A stretch of DNA of 64,000 nt from a virus. The stretch lies in UHGV virus genome UHGV-0125821; one strand, written 5' to 3'. The notes under the pieces were generated by a model. It was given only the letters and a program-made list of their open reading frames with translations, ran no database searches and was not told the origin of the DNA. This document shows, piece after piece, positions 4,269 to 40,225 of this stretch. Each line of letters begins with the position of its first letter. The first letter of the stretch is position 1. The position numbers were made by a program, and so were the translations under genes.

Positions 4269-4376
4269 CGTTAGGTATTTAATATTAATTTTCTAATACA
4301 ATCATCTTTTTACCAGTCTATACAGTTTTAACATTCTCATTATCATCCCCTCGGTCATTTCCTGCCCGGGGGATTA

Positions 4377-4769
4377 ATGGAACAAATCAGCAGCGCAGAA
4401 ATTGCGGATATCATGATCAGGGCTGACTGCTATCTGACAGTCACTGAAATTACCACTCTCGCCAAAGAAAAATACCCTCATCTCCATGTTTCACGAGTAA
4501 GTGTAACTAACATCATTCGTCATTTTGTTCGTTCAAGCAGGGCAATCTGTGAGCTTGATGATCGTGTTTACCCACGAAAATACTGGTTGCATGGCCTGAA
4601 CGGATATCAGTTCAAGGTGCGTGGGCGAACCCCTGAATATGGCAGTTTACTGGTTAAAAACTGTAGCAGGAAATCAGTCGAACAGGCGCGAAAAGAGCAA
4701 CGAGAGCTGGTGGACATGGCGAATAAGCTGTGGAATGCCGCCGTTATAAAGCGTGGTGTTGCTTTATGA
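4377..4769 (+). CDS. hypothetical protein, Lpa-like by position upstream of terminase
   Basis: position only; stop overlaps pacA-like start (ATGA). Confidence 0.5.
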   Translation: MEQISSAEIADIMIRADCYLTVTEITTLAKEKYPHLHVSRVSVTNIIRHFVRSSRAICELDDRVYPRKYWLHGLNGYQFKVRGRTPEYGSLLVKNCSRKSVEQARKEQRELVDMANKLWNAAVIKRGVAL

Positions 4770-6130
4770 GTCTGGTTAATTGGGAGGAGCACCGCGCCCG
4801 CTTTATAGCGTTGCGTGAAGAAAAAGGGATCACTGTAAAGGAATACTGTGAGGAGCATGGCCTTAGCTTCAATACAGCCAGAAAGCATCTCAATATGAAA
4901 AAAAATGAGGTGCGGTCGCAGGTAAAGACAACAAAAAAAAGCACCAAATCACCTGAAAAAAAACGGGCGGGAAGAGCAACAAAAAAGCTGGAAGAGGGTG
5001 TAGAAAAAACAAAATTTACAGAAATTGACAATTCGCAGGGCGCAGGTTCTTTCCGAAGTATGCCGAGAAAGAAAACTTCGGATCATGAAAATAATTCAAA
5101 TAATAACAATAAGATAAAAGAATCTGTCAGGAGATCATTGCGCGAAAAAATGGCGAAAATGATCCCCGAAGAAGATAAAAACGCCCCAAAAATTGAGGGA
5201 TCTTCTGCAATGATCCATGACGGTGCTGTGCAGCGAGCCACATTGCCAACTACGAATGTGGCTCGCGATATGATGAAGAACGGCGCAGAAGAACACCTGC
5301 GGTTAGCAATTCAAATGGCGCAAGAGCGCGCACTTCAGTATCAAAGCATTGTTGATCAGGAGGCCGAACGTCTACAGGCGGAAATAGACGCCTTGGGCGA
5401 TAAAGAGCCAGAAGGAATGCACCCTGGGCAGCGCCTTCTCGGTCTAATCAGTGACGCGGCCTACTACATGAATGATTTTATCAGTAGGTTGGCAGCTATA
5501 TATCAGTCCGAACAAAAGCTGCGACAGGGGGATGAAAAGCTTCGTCAGAGCGCTCGCCAGCAAGCATTCAAAGAGGCTGAGGCCAGAGAAAAACTCGAAT
5601 TAGCACGCCTACAGGCCGAACAGCGTGGCAAAGAGATTGAATATCGCATTGGCGCTGACGCACGCGCAGCCAGAGTTATCGCCGCCGCTATACGTATGCG
5701 TGAGCGCGAGGAACTGGATGATATCGGTGTTGCTGAATACATCGAGCGCCAGGGTGTCAGCGTCCCGGCTATCCTCGCGGCGCGCGCGGCGAAAGCTATC
5801 ACTCTTCTCGAACCACCTGTTTCTGACGTCAATGATGTTGATGATGAACAGCTGGACAAAGAGGCAAGGGAGTTTGCAACGCTTCAGGCTAACCATCCGC
5901 AATGGCTGGCAGAGCGCCGGGCGGATGTGGCAACCATTGTTGAAGAATTGGGGTGCGGAGATTACGACCGCAATGGCGAGCGTAAAGCTGGAGAATTCGA
6001 GGCCAACGACGAAGAGCTGGATATTGACCCTTCGGCAACGGCTGAAATTTACGGTGATTATGATGCATCTGATGCAGGGTATGACGCCGGAGATGATGAT
6101 ATCGCGATAGAACCGCCGGAGGATGATTAA
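4766..6130 (+). CDS. pacA: terminase small subunit (PacA-like)
   Basis: precedes and is translationally coupled to large terminase; N-terminal HTH-like region, acidic C-terminus; start moved to ATG 4766. Confidence 0.65.
   Translation: MSLVNWEEHRARFIALREEKGITVKEYCEEHGLSFNTARKHLNMKKNEVRSQVKTTKKSTKSPEKKRAGRATKKLEEGVEKTKFTEIDNSQGAGSFRSMPRKKTSDHENNSNNNNKIKESVRRSLREKMAKMIPEEDKNAPKIEGSSAMIHDGAVQRATLPTTNVARDMMKNGAEEHLRLAIQMAQERALQYQSIVDQEAERLQAEIDALGDKEPEGMHPGQRLLGLISDAAYYMNDFISRLAAIYQSEQKLRQGDEKLRQSARQQAFKEAEAREKLELARLQAEQRGKEIEYRIGADARAARVIAAAIRMREREELDDIGVAEYIERQGVSVPAILAARAAKAITLLEPPVSDVNDVDDEQLDKEAREFATLQANHPQWLAERRADVATIVEELGCGDYDRNGERKAGEFEANDEELDIDPSATAEIYGDYDASDAGYDAGDDDIAIEPPEDD
5080..5217. 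other. candidate pac site: five GATC-containing hexamers in 136 bp
   Basis: GATC at 5081, 5134, 5162, 5200, 5213 inside 5-prime part of pacA-like gene. Confidence 0.4.
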
Positions 6131-7638
6131 TGGCTGGCGGGCGCAAGATTAAATGCGTCACCAGAGATCCACGCTGGCGCGATATGGTAATCAAATACCG
6201 CTACAACTTTACCCAGGCTGTTGTCGATATTTTTGGGATGTTCCCCTCCCAGCAGCAGCAGCAGATCATTCAGTCCGTACAGGAAACGGGGAGTAGGACT
6301 ACCGTCACGTCCGGACACGGAACGGGGAAGTCGTCCCTTACCGCGATGTTGCTGTTGATTTTTATGATCCTGTTCCCCGATGCCCGTGTCATCATTGTTG
6401 CTAACAAGATAGGCCAGGTAAAAACAGGCGTATTCAAATACGTTAAACAGTATTGGGCGAATGCAGTTAAGCGTCATGGGTGGTTGCAGACCTATTTTGT
6501 CCTCTCTGACACCATGTTTTATGAGCGCTCCCGTAAGGGGATTTGGGAAGTTCTCTGCAAAGGTTATCGACTCGGCAACGAAGAAGCGCTGGCGGGGGAA
6601 CACGCGGCACATTTGCTTCTAATTCTGGATGAAGCATCTGGTATATCTGATAAGGCGATCGGCGTAATGACCGGTGCTCTTACTGAAGAAGATAACCGGA
6701 TGTTGATGCTATCCCAGCCAACAAGGCCAAGTGGTTATTTCTACGATTCGCACCATTCTCGAGCAAAAACCCCAGACAACCCGAAAGGGATCTGGACAGC
6801 AATTGTTCTTAACTCGGAAGAATCACCGTTCGTCACACCACAATTCATCAAGGAGAAGCTTCTGGAATATGGCGGGCGCGATTCTATTGAGTACATGGTC
6901 AAGGTGCTTGGTCAGTTCCCACGAGAAATTAACGGCTATTTGCTTGGTCGTGATGAATGCGATCGCGCTGCTCGCCGCAAGGTGTTGTTGGAGAAAAACT
7001 GGGGATGGGTGGCAACGGCTGACGTTGGTAATGGGCGAGATAAGTCGGTCCTCAACATCTGCAAGGTATCAGGTCACAGGGATAAGCGGCGCGTTGTTAA
7101 CTTTAAGGTAATGGAGATGCCTGGCACTATGGACCCATTGGCCTTTGCTGACTTCATATATAACGAATGTACGCCGGAAAAATACCCGAATATAACAATC
7201 GCGGTTGATGCTGATGGTTTTGGTTCTGATACGTGTGCGCAGTTGGTGCGTCGTGGTGCGAACCCGGTACGTATTCGGTGGGGAAAACCCATGTTTGCGA
7301 ACAAAGACAGGGAGCGATTTGTTAATCAGCGTGCCTACGCAAATATTATGGCGCGTGATGCCATAAAGTCAGGGCGTATGCGGATAGACAGTGACCCTAA
7401 AACGGCAGAGCAAGCGTCAAAAATCCCCTTTTTACTGAATGAAGAAGGGAAAATGGCGATGATGCGCAAAGAGCACATGCGGCAAAAGCTAAACATCAAA
7501 TCGCCTGACCGATGGGATACCTACTGCTTCACTATGCTGGTGGACTATGTGCCTGCTAATGAAGATATTGGTGCCGAAATGGCAACTTTCCGAGATCAGG
7601 TTCTGGCGGATATCGAAATGCCGGATCTGGATATATAA
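6130..7638 (+). CDS. pacB: terminase large subunit (PacB-like)
   Basis: Walker A GHGTGKS, Walker B-like LLILDEA, nuclease-like C-terminal half. Confidence 0.75.
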   Translation: MAGGRKIKCVTRDPRWRDMVIKYRYNFTQAVVDIFGMFPSQQQQQIIQSVQETGSRTTVTSGHGTGKSSLTAMLLLIFMILFPDARVIIVANKIGQVKTGVFKYVKQYWANAVKRHGWLQTYFVLSDTMFYERSRKGIWEVLCKGYRLGNEEALAGEHAAHLLLILDEASGISDKAIGVMTGALTEEDNRMLMLSQPTRPSGYFYDSHHSRAKTPDNPKGIWTAIVLNSEESPFVTPQFIKEKLLEYGGRDSIEYMVKVLGQFPREINGYLLGRDECDRAARRKVLLEKNWGWVATADVGNGRDKSVLNICKVSGHRDKRRVVNFKVMEMPGTMDPLAFADFIYNECTPEKYPNITIAVDADGFGSDTCAQLVRRGANPVRIRWGKPMFANKDRERFVNQRAYANIMARDAIKSGRMRIDSDPKTAEQASKIPFLLNEEGKMAMMRKEHMRQKLNIKSPDRWDTYCFTMLVDYVPANEDIGAEMATFRDQVLADIEMPDLDI

Positions 7639-7665
7639 AGCCCCGCGATGCGGGGCCGGTTGTGA

Positions 7666-8703
7666 TTACCAGAGCTTCGCGGCGTACTGCGTTTGGGGGA
7701 ATGTGTATCCGTAACGTTCTTCGATTGCTTTGCCGTATTTTTTACGAGCTTCATTCAGTTTAATGCCGGTCAGGTCGTCTCCAGAGGCCATCATTACGTC
7801 TAACAATTCCAGATCCATTTTATCCAGCCTTGCCATTGCTTCACGTGATGTACGTATCTTACGCTCAATGATATGGCGAATAGCCGGATCGGCATCCTCC
7901 AGCATCTTAGCGGATTTCTGCTTAAGGCTTTCATTGCGAATATCGATGTTCCTTAAGATGTACGACTTCGCAACGTAGCTTGGCTGGTGTTTTTCCAGGT
8001 CACGAACACGATATAAGTTAAAATCGCCGAGAAGGCTGCAAGGTACCGATTCGACGCCAGAATAAATTGTAATGCTCCGGCGTTCACCAACATTATTGAC
8101 AACGGGGATCGTTGTCTTCGGTAGTCTTGCGAAAACCAATGCACCATGTGCGCCAACTCTAAAGCGAGAAAGGGCATTGCTGCCTTCGATGTTTGTTGTC
8201 AGCACAACATCTGTATATGCCTCTTTACGCGCCCGGTAGATCTCGCCTTCAGGCTCAGCTTCAAAGAAGCGCTGTTCTTCTTCAAGATCGCCTACGATTT
8301 GAGAAAAAACCCTATTTTTCAGGCTTTTCTTTATGATTTTGTCGTATTTTTTTAGCAATTGTTCACGTGTAAATGTACGTGTTGTTGTAGCGCTTTGCAC
8401 AACGACATGCGTGCTTTGATTGGTGTCCTCAATGATGAATGGGATCGGAGAATATACAGACTCAACAATGTTCGACGCTTTGCCGTCGGCATCGCGGCAC
8501 ATGTCAACGAAGGCTTTCCATTCAGCAAGACATTTTTCAGCTTCTTCTAATATGTTTTGGTCATGCGTTAATGCAACATGGCGGAATTCCTCGCCAGCAT
8601 AACTGGTATCATGGAAAACAGAGTTTGCGACCACCAGCTCTTTCCACCGTTCAGCGGTTTGCAGGAACCGTTTGTACTCTTTCTCGATCGACTTCTTACT
8701 CAT
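7666..8703 (-). CDS. hypothetical 345-aa protein at the position of the P1 c1 repressor
   Basis: antisense between pacB-like and rox/dre; operator-like motif 20 bp upstream of its start; function not established. Confidence 0.6.
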   Translation of the reverse strand: MSKKSIEKEYKRFLQTAERWKELVVANSVFHDTSYAGEEFRHVALTHDQNILEEAEKCLAEWKAFVDMCRDADGKASNIVESVYSPIPFIIEDTNQSTHVVVQSATTTRTFTREQLLKKYDKIIKKSLKNRVFSQIVGDLEEEQRFFEAEPEGEIYRARKEAYTDVVLTTNIEGSNALSRFRVGAHGALVFARLPKTTIPVVNNVGERRSITIYSGVESVPCSLLGDFNLYRVRDLEKHQPSYVAKSYILRNIDIRNESLKQKSAKMLEDADPAIRHIIERKIRTSREAMARLDKMDLELLDVMMASGDDLTGIKLNEARKKYGKAIEERYGYTFPQTQYAAKLW

Positions 8704-8914: not shown

Positions 8915-8946
8915 TAACTTTAAATAATTGGCATTATTTAAAGTTA
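8915..8946. other. rox-like recombination site
   Basis: TAACTTTAAATAATTGGCATTATTTAAAGTTA; reverse complement equals the rox sequence as I recall it. Confidence 0.85.
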
Positions 8947-35876: not shown

Positions 35877-36782
35877 ATGAGATCAGTCGCTTTCAAAAAT
35901 ATCTTCATCTATCGTCTTTCACGCGAAGTTAGCTGGGATACTGCAGAAGTAAATGCAGCCCTTAGCAAGTTTGTGTTTACCCCATGCGGTTCTCAGGATA
36001 TGGCTAAAGCTGGTTGGACCTCCGTTCTTGGTGACAACCTCACCCATGAATACCAGGGTTTTCTTCTGATACAGCATAAACGAGAGGAAAAAATCCTACC
36101 CTCTCAAGTGCTCAAAGAAGAGTTACAGAAAAAAATCCTGACACTTGAAGAAGAGCAAGACAGAAAGCTGAAGAAGACTGAAAAAGATTCGCTGAAGGAT
36201 GAAGTGCTTCACTCTCTGCTTCCTCGTGCTTTCACGAGAAAATCAGTCGCTAAAATCCTGATAGACCGAAGCAATCATCTGGTTTTTGTCGAGGCCAGCA
36301 GTGCTAAAAAAGCAGAGGATCAGCTGGCTTTGTTACGGAAATCGCTTGGCAGCTTGCCCGTTGTCCCCTTCTCTCCGAAAGACCCATTAGAACTGACCAT
36401 CACTGGCTGGATTAAAAATGGCTTCCCGAACGGTTTCCGTGCCGGTGAGGAAGCGACCTTAAAAGCATTGCTTGATGATGGCGGCGCGGTCCGCTGCAAA
36501 AAAGTGGACCTGCTATCCGACGAGATCATGAGTCATATAGAAGCTGGTAAGGTTGCAACCACAGTTGCGGTTAACTGGCAAGACCGTGCATTTTTCAGAC
36601 TGAATGACGATATGAGTATCAAGGCTTTGTCGTTCAGCGACGAATTGTACGACCAGAACGACGATATTGATCGAGAGGATGTTGCGCAACGATTTGACGC
36701 TGACTTTATCCTGTTTACTGCTGAATTATCCGCGATGTTCACTTCGCTGGTGGAGGCCGTTGGTGGTGAAGCTGAACGTTAA
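35877..36782 (+). CDS. rdgC: recombination-associated protein RdgC
   Basis: [14 protein letters not shown] ... [21 protein letters not shown] ... [18 protein letters not shown] parallels E. coli RdgC. Confidence 0.9.
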
Positions 36783-36795
36783 CAATAGACCTCTG

Positions 36796-37446
36796 ATGGT
36801 GAGTCTTTGTGATTTCACGGGGAAAATGGTCGCCCCCTGGCTGGAGCATGGTATAGATGCTGTTATCGTCGATCCACAACACGCAGAGACCAGAGATGAG
36901 CTGATGCAATCAGGCGCAGTTCTGACACGTATCAGTGCGATTATCGATAGTGATGAAGTTTATGCTTTTCTCCGAAATAATTTACAACGTATTGTGTTTT
37001 TAGCTGGTTTTCCGCCGTGCACGGACCTTGCTGTTTCCGGTGCGCGCTGGTTTGCGCATAAGGCTGACAAAGATCCGTTTTTCCAGTTCAAAGCAATGCA
37101 GGTTGTCTGGCAGTGTTATGACATTGCAAAGATGATCGGTTGTCCGTACATGATTGAAAATCCGGTCAGCAAAATATCGACATTCTGGCGTAAGCCAGAT
37201 CACATCTTTCACCCTTACTTCTTCACTGCATATTGTCAGGAAGATAACTACACCAAAAAAACATGCCTCTGGAGCGGCCAGGGCTTTGTCATGCCTGATG
37301 CCCTAATGGACGAATCATTAGGCAAGCCAGATAACAGAATCCATGCCGCGCCACCAGGGCCTGACAGGGCTAATTTTCGAAGTGCTACTCCACATGGATT
37401 CGCAAAGGCAGTTTTCGAAGCGAATAAGGGGGTGCTCTATGAGTAA
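36796..37446 (+). CDS. small C5-cytosine-methyltransferase-like protein
   Basis: FTG, GFPPC and ENP motif-like segments; too short for a full MTase; start set at MVSLCDF. Confidence 0.4.
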   Translation: MVSLCDFTGKMVAPWLEHGIDAVIVDPQHAETRDELMQSGAVLTRISAIIDSDEVYAFLRNNLQRIVFLAGFPPCTDLAVSGARWFAHKADKDPFFQFKAMQVVWQCYDIAKMIGCPYMIENPVSKISTFWRKPDHIFHPYFFTAYCQEDNYTKKTCLWSGQGFVMPDALMDESLGKPDNRIHAAPPGPDRANFRSATPHGFAKAVFEANKGVLYE

Positions 37447-38344
37447 ATCTATAGCAAGCATAGCCATAGAAAAACAGGATACGATGGCTGAAATTAGCTA
37501 TATGCGCACCATTCGGACTCCGGATGAATATGAGCGTCCGATATTCAAATGGGTAGGTGGTAAATTCTCAGAATTGCCTACAGTGCTTGAGCATCTACCA
37601 CACGGTAAGCGGTTAATAGAACCATTCGTTGGTGGCGGTTCCGTATTTACGAATGCAGGATTTTGCCACAACCTGCTTAATGATATTAACGGTGACCTGA
37701 TTAACTTCTATCAGACATTGCAGCGAGAAGGACATTCGCTCGTCACGCTGTCATATAGTTTTTTCCAAAATTACAACAACGCTGACGCTTACCTCGAAGT
37801 GCGTGAGGCATTTAACAGAGGAAAGTATGACCAGCTACATCATGCTGCCGCCTTTTTGTACCTTAATCGGCACTGTTTTAATGGCGTAACGCGGTACAAC
37901 CAAAATGGCGAGTTCAACGTGGGGTATGGCAAATACAAAGCGCCCTACTTCCCACATGCAGAGATGGAGGCATTTTTGGCTGATGACGTACTCAAAAACA
38001 CGTCCTTTGTATCAGGTGACTTTGCTGGCGTCATCGAGGCGGCTGGTGAAGGCGATGTGATTTTTTGCGATCCGCCGTATGAACCGCTGCCGGATACAGA
38101 AGGGTTTACCAGTTATTCAGGAAATAGCTTCCGTTTCGACGAACAGAAACGGCTGGTATCTCTATTGGTGGAAGCCCACCAGCGCGGCGCTAAGGTAGTG
38201 ATAACAAATAGTGGTGCGCCAAACATCCGTGAACTATATGAAGGAAACGGGTTTAAAGTACATCATATGGCAGCCAGACGGTCGGTGTCCTGCAAGGCGT
38301 CAACACGTGTAGTTGCTAACGATATAATTGCAATAATGAAGTAA
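37439..38344 (+). CDS. dam: DNA adenine methyltransferase (Dam family)
   Basis: FKWVGGK, EPFVGGGSVF, DPPY motifs; start set at MSKSIAS. Confidence 0.85.
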   Translation: MSKSIASIAIEKQDTMAEISYMRTIRTPDEYERPIFKWVGGKFSELPTVLEHLPHGKRLIEPFVGGGSVFTNAGFCHNLLNDINGDLINFYQTLQREGHSLVTLSYSFFQNYNNADAYLEVREAFNRGKYDQLHHAAAFLYLNRHCFNGVTRYNQNGEFNVGYGKYKAPYFPHAEMEAFLADDVLKNTSFVSGDFAGVIEAAGEGDVIFCDPPYEPLPDTEGFTSYSGNSFRFDEQKRLVSLLVEAHQRGAKVVITNSGAPNIRELYEGNGFKVHHMAARRSVSCKASTRVVANDIIAIMK

Positions 38345-38392: not shown

Positions 38393-40054
38393 TTAACCTA
38401 ACTTCGCCCAGGTATCACGCAGCCCAACGGTGCGGTTAAATACCGGTTTTTCCGCCGTAGAATGGCGGCTGTCGAGGCAGAAATAACCTTCACGCTCAAA
38501 CTGGAATGCTTTACCCGCTACCGCTTCTTTCAGCGACGGTTCAGCAAAACCCTGTTTGATCACCAGCGATTCCGGGTTAATCACCGACAGGAAATCATCC
38601 GCAGCACCTGGGTTCGGCACGCTGAACAGACGATCGTACAGGCGGATTTCAACCGGCAGCGCATGTGCCGCGCTCACCCAGTGAATAACGCCTTTCACTT
38701 TACGACCATCTGCCGGATCTTTGCTTAAGGTGTCGGCGTCATAAGTACAGAAGATGGTGGTGATATTGCCTTCGGCATCTTTCTCCACGCGTTCAGCCTT
38801 AATGACGTAAGCATTACGCAGACGCACTTCTTTACCCAGCACCAGACGTTTGTACTGCTTGTTAGCTTCTTCGCGGAAATCGGCGCGGTCGATCCAAATC
38901 TCACCGCTAAACGGCACCTGACGGCTACCCATTTCCGGTTTGTTCGGATGGTTCGGCATGGTGACCATTTCGCCTTCGCCCTGGTAGTTTTCGATAACCA
39001 GTTTCACCGGATCGATAACCGCCATTGCGCGCGGCGCATTTTCGTTGAGATCTTCACGGATGCAGGATTCCAGCGACGCCATCTCAATGGTGTTGTCCTG
39101 CTTGGTCACGCCGATGCGTTTGCAGAACTCACGAATAGAAGCCGCAGTGTAACCACGACGACGCAGACCGGAAATGGTCGGCATACGCGGGTCATCCCAG
39201 CCTTCAACGTGCTTGTCGGTCACCAGCAGGTTCAGCTTACGCTTGGACATCACGGTGTATTCCAGATTCAGGCGCGAGAATTCGTACTGGCGCGGGTGAA
39301 CAGGAATGGTGATGTTGTCCAGCACCCAGTCGTACAGGCGACGGTTGTCCTGGAACTCAAGCGTACACAGAGAGTGCGTAATACCTTCCAGCGCATCGCT
39401 GATGCAATGGGTGAAGTCGTACATCGGGTAGATGCACCACTTGTTGCCAGTCTGGTGGTGTTCAGCAAATTTAATGCGGTACAGCACCGGATCGCGCATT
39501 ACGATAAATGGCGACGCCATGTCGATTTTCGCACGCAGGCAGGCTTTACCTTCTTCAAAACCACCGGTACGCATTTTTTCGAACAGCGCCAGGTTCTCTT
39601 CAACGCTGCGGTCGCGGTACGGGCTGTTTTTACCCGGCTGCGTCAGGGTGCCGCGGTATTCGCGGATCTGTTCCGGCGTCAGTTCATCAACGTACGCCAG
39701 GCCTTTATTGATCAGTTCGATCGCATAGGCGTGGAGCTGATCAAAATAATCGGAGGAGTAACGGACGTTACCAGACCAGTGAAAACCTAACCACTCAACG
39801 TCGTTTTTGATCGACTCAACATACTCGATATCTTCTTTTACCGGGTTAGTGTCGTCGAAACGCAGGTTGCACTGGCCTTTATAGTCCTGGGCGATCCCGA
39901 AGTTCAGGCAGATAGATTTCGCATGACCAATATGCAGATAGCCATTCGGTTCCGGCGGGAAACGGGTATGTACTGTGGTGTGCTTACCACTGGCCAGATC
40001 TTCATCGATGATCTGACGAATAAAGTTAGTCGGGCGGGCTTCTGCCTCACTCAT
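38393..40054 (-). CDS. glnS: glutaminyl-tRNA synthetase
   Basis: 553 aa essentially identical to enterobacterial GlnS as recalled; last residues read KLG. Confidence 0.95.
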
Positions 40055-40225
40055 TGTGGATTCCTCAAAGCGTAAACTACGTATAACAGCGTATGATCTT
40101 ATAAGCCGAATAGGCTGACAACCACTAGTTGATTAGAAATTGCTTTCTATCGTTATTTCAATAATGAGCTTTTTCATGAAGCCCACTTTTGCGCATAAGT
40201 AAATTAATGACAAATGGTACACAAT

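Follow-up and report, generated by a model that had tools for sequence, protein, structure and literature searches.

A GATC-centred repeat cluster within pacA as the probable packaging site of D6-type phage-plasmids: a P1-like pac of variant architecture

Phage D6 is a plasmid prophage related to phage P1. The pac site of P1, at which DNA packaging begins, occupies 161 bp within pacA and contains seven TGATCA/G repeats, and its cleavage is gated by Dam methylation (PMC10028697). In the P1 record (AF234173) the cleavage positions and a site for integration host factor (IHF) are annotated between two arms of GATC motifs, the left one at pacA nt 195, 202, 214 and 229 and the right one at nt 325, 337 and 348 (376). 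P1 pac is cut by PacA and PacB with IHF/HU. Here we describe the corresponding region of the virus genome UHGV-0125821, from a stretch of 64,000 nucleotides (the window, to whose numbering all coordinates refer unless pacA nucleotides are indicated). The window holds a phage D6-type plasmid prophage that is, over 4300-7700, 98.8% identical in nucleotide sequence to Escherichia phage D6 (AY753669, MF356679). On the basis of sequence comparison, a cluster of five GATC-centred repeats at 5079-5217, inside pacA, is probably the pac site of the D6-type phage-plasmid or the core recognition part of it. Its GATC motifs have remained fixed while the surrounding DNA diverged, which points to a packaging start site, most likely a P1-like pac of variant architecture. 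An earlier reading of the sequence alone (the original prediction) had proposed a candidate Dam-controlled pac here by analogy with methylation-sensitive TGATCA/G hexamers inside P1 pacA.

By direct motif count, the five GATC tetranucleotides of the cluster begin at 5081, 5133, 5161, 5199 and 5212, and on the top strand they belong, in this order, to the hexamers GGATCA, AGATCA, TGATCC, GGATCT and TGATCC. When each is read on the strand that gives an initial T, where there is one, three are TGATCC, one is TGATCT and one is AGATCC. Placed each on its proper strand, the five sites share the consensus (A)ATGATCC(C) and have the orientations -, -, +, - and +. Site 1 (5079-5087, minus strand, GATC at 5081-5084) reads CATGATCCG on the bottom strand, is in frame 0 and encodes Asp-His; its GGATCA is unchanged in all 31 unique sequences of the D6 clade. 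Site 2 (5131-5139, minus strand, GATC at 5133-5136) reads AATGATCTC on the bottom strand and encodes, in frame 1, Arg/Gly-Ser. Among the lineage representatives its GATCATT is invariant, while the codon before it alternates between AGA (Arg) and GGA (Gly) with the GATC retained. Site 3 (5158-5166, plus strand, GATC at 5161-5164), which forms an inverted pair with site 2, reads AATGATCCC and encodes Met-Ile-Pro in frame 2; here AAATGATCCC is invariant among the representatives. Site 4 (5197-5205, minus strand, GATC at 5199-5202; GAAGATCCC on the bottom strand) is again in frame 1 and encodes Gly/Arg-Ser. Its GATC core is invariant, in contrast to the flanks and to the encoded residue, which is either Gly or Arg. 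Finally, site 5 (5209-5217, plus strand, GATC at 5212-5215) reads AATGATCCA, of which AATGATCC is invariant, and encodes Met-Ile in frame 2. The L006 lineage has perfect copies of AATGATCCC at four of its five sites, and its sites 4 and 5 together make a perfect palindrome, GGGATCATT-gca-AATGATCCC.

The start-to-start spacings of the sites are 52, 28, 38 and 13 bp, with no insertion or deletion between sites in any lineage of the D6 clade. The arrangement can be described as 1+4, with site 1 to the left and sites 2-5 to the right of a 47-bp AT-rich spacer, or alternatively as two inverted pairs plus one. The spacer (5088-5129, 80-90% A+T) encodes an Asn-rich segment, and one may guess that it serves as a bending or cleavage region. 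All five positions and hexamers given for 5080-5217 in the original prediction were recovered, as was its roughly ten-fold enrichment in GATC (computed as 10.6-fold) and the location of the cluster inside a PacA-like small-terminase gene, which is the homologue of D6 pacA with pacB following at 6130. Its description of two groups flanking an Asn/Lys-rich segment holds only roughly: the Asn-rich codons, at 5088-5123, part a single site (5081) from the other four. In one draft genome of IMG/VR (2537562191), two contigs, the end of one (L046) and the start of the other (L037), break within the AT-rich spacer just after site 1, at the equivalent of 5085-5094, with a 10-nt overlap between the two ends (ATGAAAATAA). 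This break was not accepted as evidence of a physical DNA end, as it comes from a single draft assembly in an AT-rich region and may be either an assembly artefact or a trace of such an end. Just downstream of the cluster is a perfect 12-nt inverted repeat (5233-5244 and 5255-5266; GCGAGCCACATT and AATGTGGCTCGC, 10 nt apart), which is confined to the lineage of the window and D6 and is not kept in the other D6-clade lineages.

Conservation of the sites was assessed on a pacA set comprising 13 plasmid records, phage D6, P1 and 74 IMG/VR loci. The D6 clade contributes 31 unique sequences to it, which fall into four deep lineages; the window, L006, L007 and L009 stand for one lineage each. Two sequences were left out of this analysis, L011 (Salmonella pSa1423-90k) and L008 (Shigella dysenteriae plasmid CP026821). 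The pacA gene of the former carries many small indels, a pattern typical of uncorrected long-read assemblies; that of the latter is frameshifted, with nine in-frame stops. The four lineages are 69-76% identical over pacA and only 62-66% identical in nucleotide sequence across nt 300-460. The cluster corresponds to codons 106-150, a poorly conserved stretch after the N-terminal helix-turn-helix; this linker, variable and prone to indels, lies between the conserved helix-turn-helix-like region and the conserved C-terminal two-thirds of the protein. In spite of this variability, the GATC core bases of the five sites are invariant in 20 of 20 positions across the four lineages, as against 41-44% of the other linker bases. 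In a permutation test that comprises only four lineages and ignores codon structure, just 4 of 200,000 draws of five random linker tetramers gave complete invariance (P ~2e-5). Invariant runs of 4 nt or more number 11 in the linker, and five of them include a GATC. The GATC motifs further downstream in pacA (nt 589, 681, 1032, 1086, 1147 and 1261), which serve as an internal control, are each confined to one lineage.

The sites span frames 0, 1, 2, 1 and 2 and both orientations, and the exchange of Arg and Gly at sites 2 and 4 keeps the GATC. Because the motif occurs in three frames and both orientations and survives these replacements, a by-product of protein coding is taken as excluded. Thus it is the DNA of the repeats that related phages conserve, as is expected of a P1-type pac, and the five sites very probably constitute a selected DNA element. 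The window and phage D6 share the same five GATC sites and are 98.8% identical over lpa-pacA-pacB-c1, so that the finding applies directly to D6.

The concentration of GATC in this part of pacA is a property of the family. Of 14 lineage representatives, 12 have a GATC density in pacA nt 130-500 that is 3.4- to 7.2-fold that of the rest of the locus; in L049 and L053 the enrichment is weak, with 3-4 sites each. Most of the layouts are bipartite. The Pantoea-like genes have a left arm at pacA nt 154-214 (six sites, 12 bp apart), with a further one at 237 in some, and a right arm at 363 and 379; in the Serratia-like genes the arms lie at 199-255 and 338-375, and in the Enterobacter-like ones at 157, 169 and 181 and at 380-471. 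A divergent P1-like element, L081, provides a positive control: it is 56% identical to P1 in the pac region and retains six of the seven P1 hexamers as conserved islands. The D6 islands resemble those of P1 and L081, and therefore the D6 pattern looks like that of a known functional pac. The Enterobacter-type relatives (pJBIWA008_2, and the IMG/VR loci L047 and L048) have the repeat itself in common with D6: seven of their eight sites carry ATGATCC(C), and three sites are at positions shared with D6 (alignment columns 466, 494 and 557).

The likeness to P1 extends to the context of the cluster. Like P1 pac, it is situated inside the homologous gene, within the variable part that directly follows the N-terminal helix-turn-helix; pacB is the next gene, and multiple GATC-centred repeats are kept as islands in divergent DNA. 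A Cre/lox-type site, the rox site of Dre/rox, follows downstream in that direction at a distance of about 4 kb; in P1, with the same gene order, lox is 4.0 kb from the pac cleavage sites. The element also encodes a Dam-type methylase of its own.

Several observations weigh against the assignment as pac, or at least separate the D6 cluster from the P1 prototype. The first is that the density of GATC is not a sufficient argument. The window holds 221 GATC sites, one per 290 bp, which is slightly below the expectation from dinucleotide shuffling (239 ± 15); with five sites in 135 bp, as against 0.47 expected, the pacA cluster is the tightest five-site cluster of the whole window, but uniform random placement of 221 sites in 64 kb gave one equally tight or tighter in 19% of trials. 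In a scan of the whole window, GATC density by itself is thus not significant (P ~0.19), and its use as sole evidence for pac was dropped. The longer motif ATGATCC fares better, with three of the ten copies in the window falling within the 137 bp of the cluster (scan P ~0.0014). The small number of lineages behind the permutation test, mentioned above, is a second reservation. Third, the repeat differs: D6 has the asymmetric (A)ATGATCC(C) in both orientations where P1 has TGATCA/G, and only the GATC core is common to the hexamers of the two phages. The layout differs as well, since D6 has five copies arranged 1+4 around the 47-bp AT-rich spacer whereas P1 has seven, arranged 4+3 around a cleavage region of about 90 bp; the Enterobacter-type relatives, with their 3+5 bipartite layout, have an extra left arm (pacA nt 157-181) that is missing from the D6 clade. 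The centre of the D6 cluster is also about 100 nt further into pacA than that of P1 (nt 383 versus ~280). No match to the IHF consensus WATCAANNNNTTR with at most one mismatch was found on either strand of 4950-5300, a result compatible with a weaker site or with the use of HU; in P1 the annotated IHF site, AAACAAAGAGTTA, which has one mismatch, is beside the cleavage sites. Lastly, L027 is without site 2, and L043 is without site 3 (GATC changed to GACC), although their PacA proteins are 95-99% identical to that of the window. These losses suggest either that single sites are dispensable or that those copies are impaired or package poorly.

The change of the repeat has a possible counterpart in the protein. 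PacA of the window and of P1 are 23% identical in a family alignment. Starting from the PacA of the window, a tblastn search of phage records at E<=1e-5 found only D6 and no match to P1, and P1 PacA was reached via PacB. The predicted recognition helix (PacA residues 36-42, encoded at 4871-4891) is NTARKHL in D6 and NTARRYL in P1. The D6 clade and the Enterobacter-like genes use TGATCC, whereas the P1-, Pantoea- and Serratia-like genes use TGATCA and TGATCG, and across loci L003-L090 this split tracks the helix, NTARKHL going with TGATCC and NTARRE/YL with TGATCA/G. The D6-type genes with an NTARKHL helix hold 164 linker sites in all: 116 TGATCC, 24 TGATCT, 22 AGATCC and only two TGATCA. The correlation is suggestive: the split is clean, yet it amounts essentially to two clades. 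It has been interpreted here, tentatively and with rather more doubt than confidence, to mean that the D6-type pacases switched specificity, to asymmetric (A)ATGATCC(C) inverted pairs in one arm, keeping the GATC core and Dam gating and changing the PacA helix, and that the pac sites of D6 and P1 are mutually orthogonal. If this were so, phage-plasmids sharing a cell would not package one another's DNA.

By analogy with P1, the following sequence of events can be envisaged. The pacase, composed of PacA and PacB, would make its first cut at 5079-5217 in replicated, concatemeric DNA, from which headful packaging would start. PacA would bind the repeats through its N-terminal helix-turn-helix, as P1 suggests, and both binding and cutting would depend on whether the GATC adenines have been N6-methylated by the Dam enzyme of the host or that of the element. 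Newly made, hemimethylated sites would be bound and left uncut until fully methylated. PacB would then cut nearby, and we would guess in or beside the AT-rich spacer at 5088-5129. In P1, packaging runs toward the recombination site, which thereby comes to lie in the terminal redundancy. In D6, packaging would similarly head toward pacB, c1 and rox, so that rox would often fall inside the terminal redundancy and Dre would recircularise the incoming DNA. For cleavage at the D6 cluster, for the position of the cut and for its dependence on methylation, the argument is one of analogy with P1.

The Dam enzyme of E. coli and M.DpnII both methylate GATC. A Dam-family N6-adenine methyltransferase gene is present on the plus strand of the window at 37439-38344 (PF02086, E=5e-56), as the original prediction had noted. 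Its product, presumed to modify GATC, belongs to the D12-class family (TIGR00571, 250.5 bits, cut-off 114.85) and matches E. coli Dam (2G1P, E=1.5e-58) and M.DpnII (E=1.1e-45) over its full length. We nevertheless only infer a specificity for GATC, because the score, 240 bits, does not reach the 441-bit cut-off of NF008152, the equivalog model for E. coli Dam. The proposal of a candidate Dam-controlled pac is thus upheld by the pacA/pacB context, the conservation at the DNA level, the clusters found across the family and the encoded Dam homologue, with the Dam control itself taken over from P1. Some 650 bp upstream of the Dam gene, and separated from it by one unassigned open reading frame, is an RdgC-family gene (35877-36782; PF04381, E=6e-102).

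An alternative, which we regard as unlikely, assumes that the cluster is a regulatory element responsive to Dam and SeqA, for example one that times the expression of pacA and pacB or mediates sequestration after replication, and that pac is elsewhere. A GATC core that is kept more strictly than its flanks would suit any function that reads methylation, and the missing IHF site and P1-like 4+3 layout are also in keeping with this model. Against it, a promoter scan of 4300-6300 on both strands detected no promoter-like site in or near the cluster, and the same region of the gene is the experimentally defined pac in P1. Moreover, SeqA reads GATC alone, whereas the conserved unit here is ATGATCC(C), common also to the Enterobacter-like lineage, which points to a sequence-specific binding protein rather than to SeqA.

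Another model, also improbable, holds that the cluster is no more than a single arm, or an accessory component, of a larger pac whose essential elements are outside 5080-5217. Candidates for such elements are two invariant DNA islands in the linker upstream of site 1, at 5013-5031 (AATTTACA, TGACAA) and 5060-5065 (ATGCCG), and a possible extra, distal TGATCCC at 4827-4833. The latter (minus strand, GATC at 4828-4831) is 253 bp upstream of site 1, in the codons for Gly21-Ile22-Thr23 of the PacA helix-turn-helix, and occurs in all D6-clade sequences; it may either belong to the site as a distal element or reflect a strongly conserved protein motif, selection on DNA and on protein being inseparable at this place. 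That invariant runs exist upstream in the same linker, outside the GATC sites, favours the model, as does the comparison with P1 and the Enterobacter-like genes, in which two arms are 90-200 bp apart, D6 having one dense arm plus site 1. The two islands coincide, however, with the conserved residues F-T-x-x-D and M-P, so that selection at the protein level may explain them. Besides, a larger pac would still include the cluster and would refine rather than contradict its assignment as pac or as the core of it. Finally, the idea that GATC accumulated here by chance, or just follows from the conserved residues DH, GS and MIP, and has no function at the DNA level is scarcely credible: the result of random placement and the lack of GATC excess in the window speak in its favour, but it has to face the 20 invariant core bases across lineages about 62% identical, the three frames and two orientations with GATC kept through residue changes at sites 2 and 4, and the independent clusters in the same gene region of nearly all PacA lineages.

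The class of mechanism is well known and appears to be extended here, the apparent differences being the sequence of the repeat, the mixed orientation and the single-arm layout. Sauer and McDermott are said to have compared, in 2004, the pac-c1 regions of P1-related phages including D6. A description of the D6 pac was not found in the full-text literature, from whose coverage the likeliest sources (Sauer & McDermott 2004, Gilcrease & Casjens 2018) were absent, and an earlier description is possible. The GenBank records of D6 (AY753669, MF356679) carry no annotation of a pac site. E. coli and Salmonella commonly carry D6-like phage-plasmids, and 140 plasmid records contain a relative of PacA. 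These elements have been associated with the emerging ST213 genotype of Salmonella Typhimurium, which carries multidrug-resistance plasmids (PMC6799933). With the D6 pac delimited to about 140 bp, it would be easier to predict which DNA is transduced by D6-like elements, and D6-based phagemids could be built alongside P1 delivery systems (PMC10028697). Such a site would also let the generality of methylation-gated packaging in the P1/D6 supergroup be tested. The apparent switch between TGATCA/G and TGATCC, together with the changed PacA helix, provides a simple natural experiment for studying site recognition by small terminases.

The genes around the cluster are arranged as in D6, in the order lpa-pacA-pacB-c1-rox-dre. 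The lpa gene (4377-4769), so annotated in D6, belongs to the late-promoter-activator family of Pfam (E=5e-56). It is followed on the plus strand by pacA (4766-6130), which encodes the small terminase, or pacase A, and is 98.8% identical in nucleotide sequence to D6 pacA (AY753669, 761-2125). The adjoining pacB (6130-7638, plus strand) encodes the large terminase, or pacase B, the presumed nuclease/ATPase partner. PacB is 99% identical to its D6 counterpart and, across 97% of its length, shares 55.7% identity with P1 PacB; it also gives a weak match to Terminase_6N. Both genes are intact in the window. Next come c1 (7666-8703, minus strand, named after the D6 annotation) and rox (8915-8946, plus strand), an exact match to the rox arms that is annotated in D6 and is placed 3.8 kb downstream of the cluster in the direction pacA-pacB-c1.

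The N-terminal helix-turn-helix-like region of PacA gives a weak Pfam match to HTH_23 and contains the family-invariant residues W6, H9, G21, T23, Y27, N36, T37 and R39. In a single-sequence structure model of low overall confidence (predicted local distance difference test, pLDDT, 62; predicted template-modelling score, pTM, 0.26), this N-terminus forms three helices with pLDDT 70-86, and residues 59-110 and 135-170 are below pLDDT 50. A profile search of PacA against the sequences in PDB yielded no meaningful match, and a scan of genome contigs with PacA yielded no confirmed relative.

The only other GATC cluster in the window is at 39665-40098, with nine sites in 434 bp, and covers the 5' part and the upstream region of glnS, a glutaminyl-tRNA synthetase gene on the element (38393-40054, minus strand). 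This DNA matches the chromosomal glnS of 5425 out of 5426 complete E. coli genomes at about 96.6% identity. This near identity indicates that the GATC cluster came with the host gene, and the stretch, being part of a host-derived glnS, was dropped as a competing candidate for pac.

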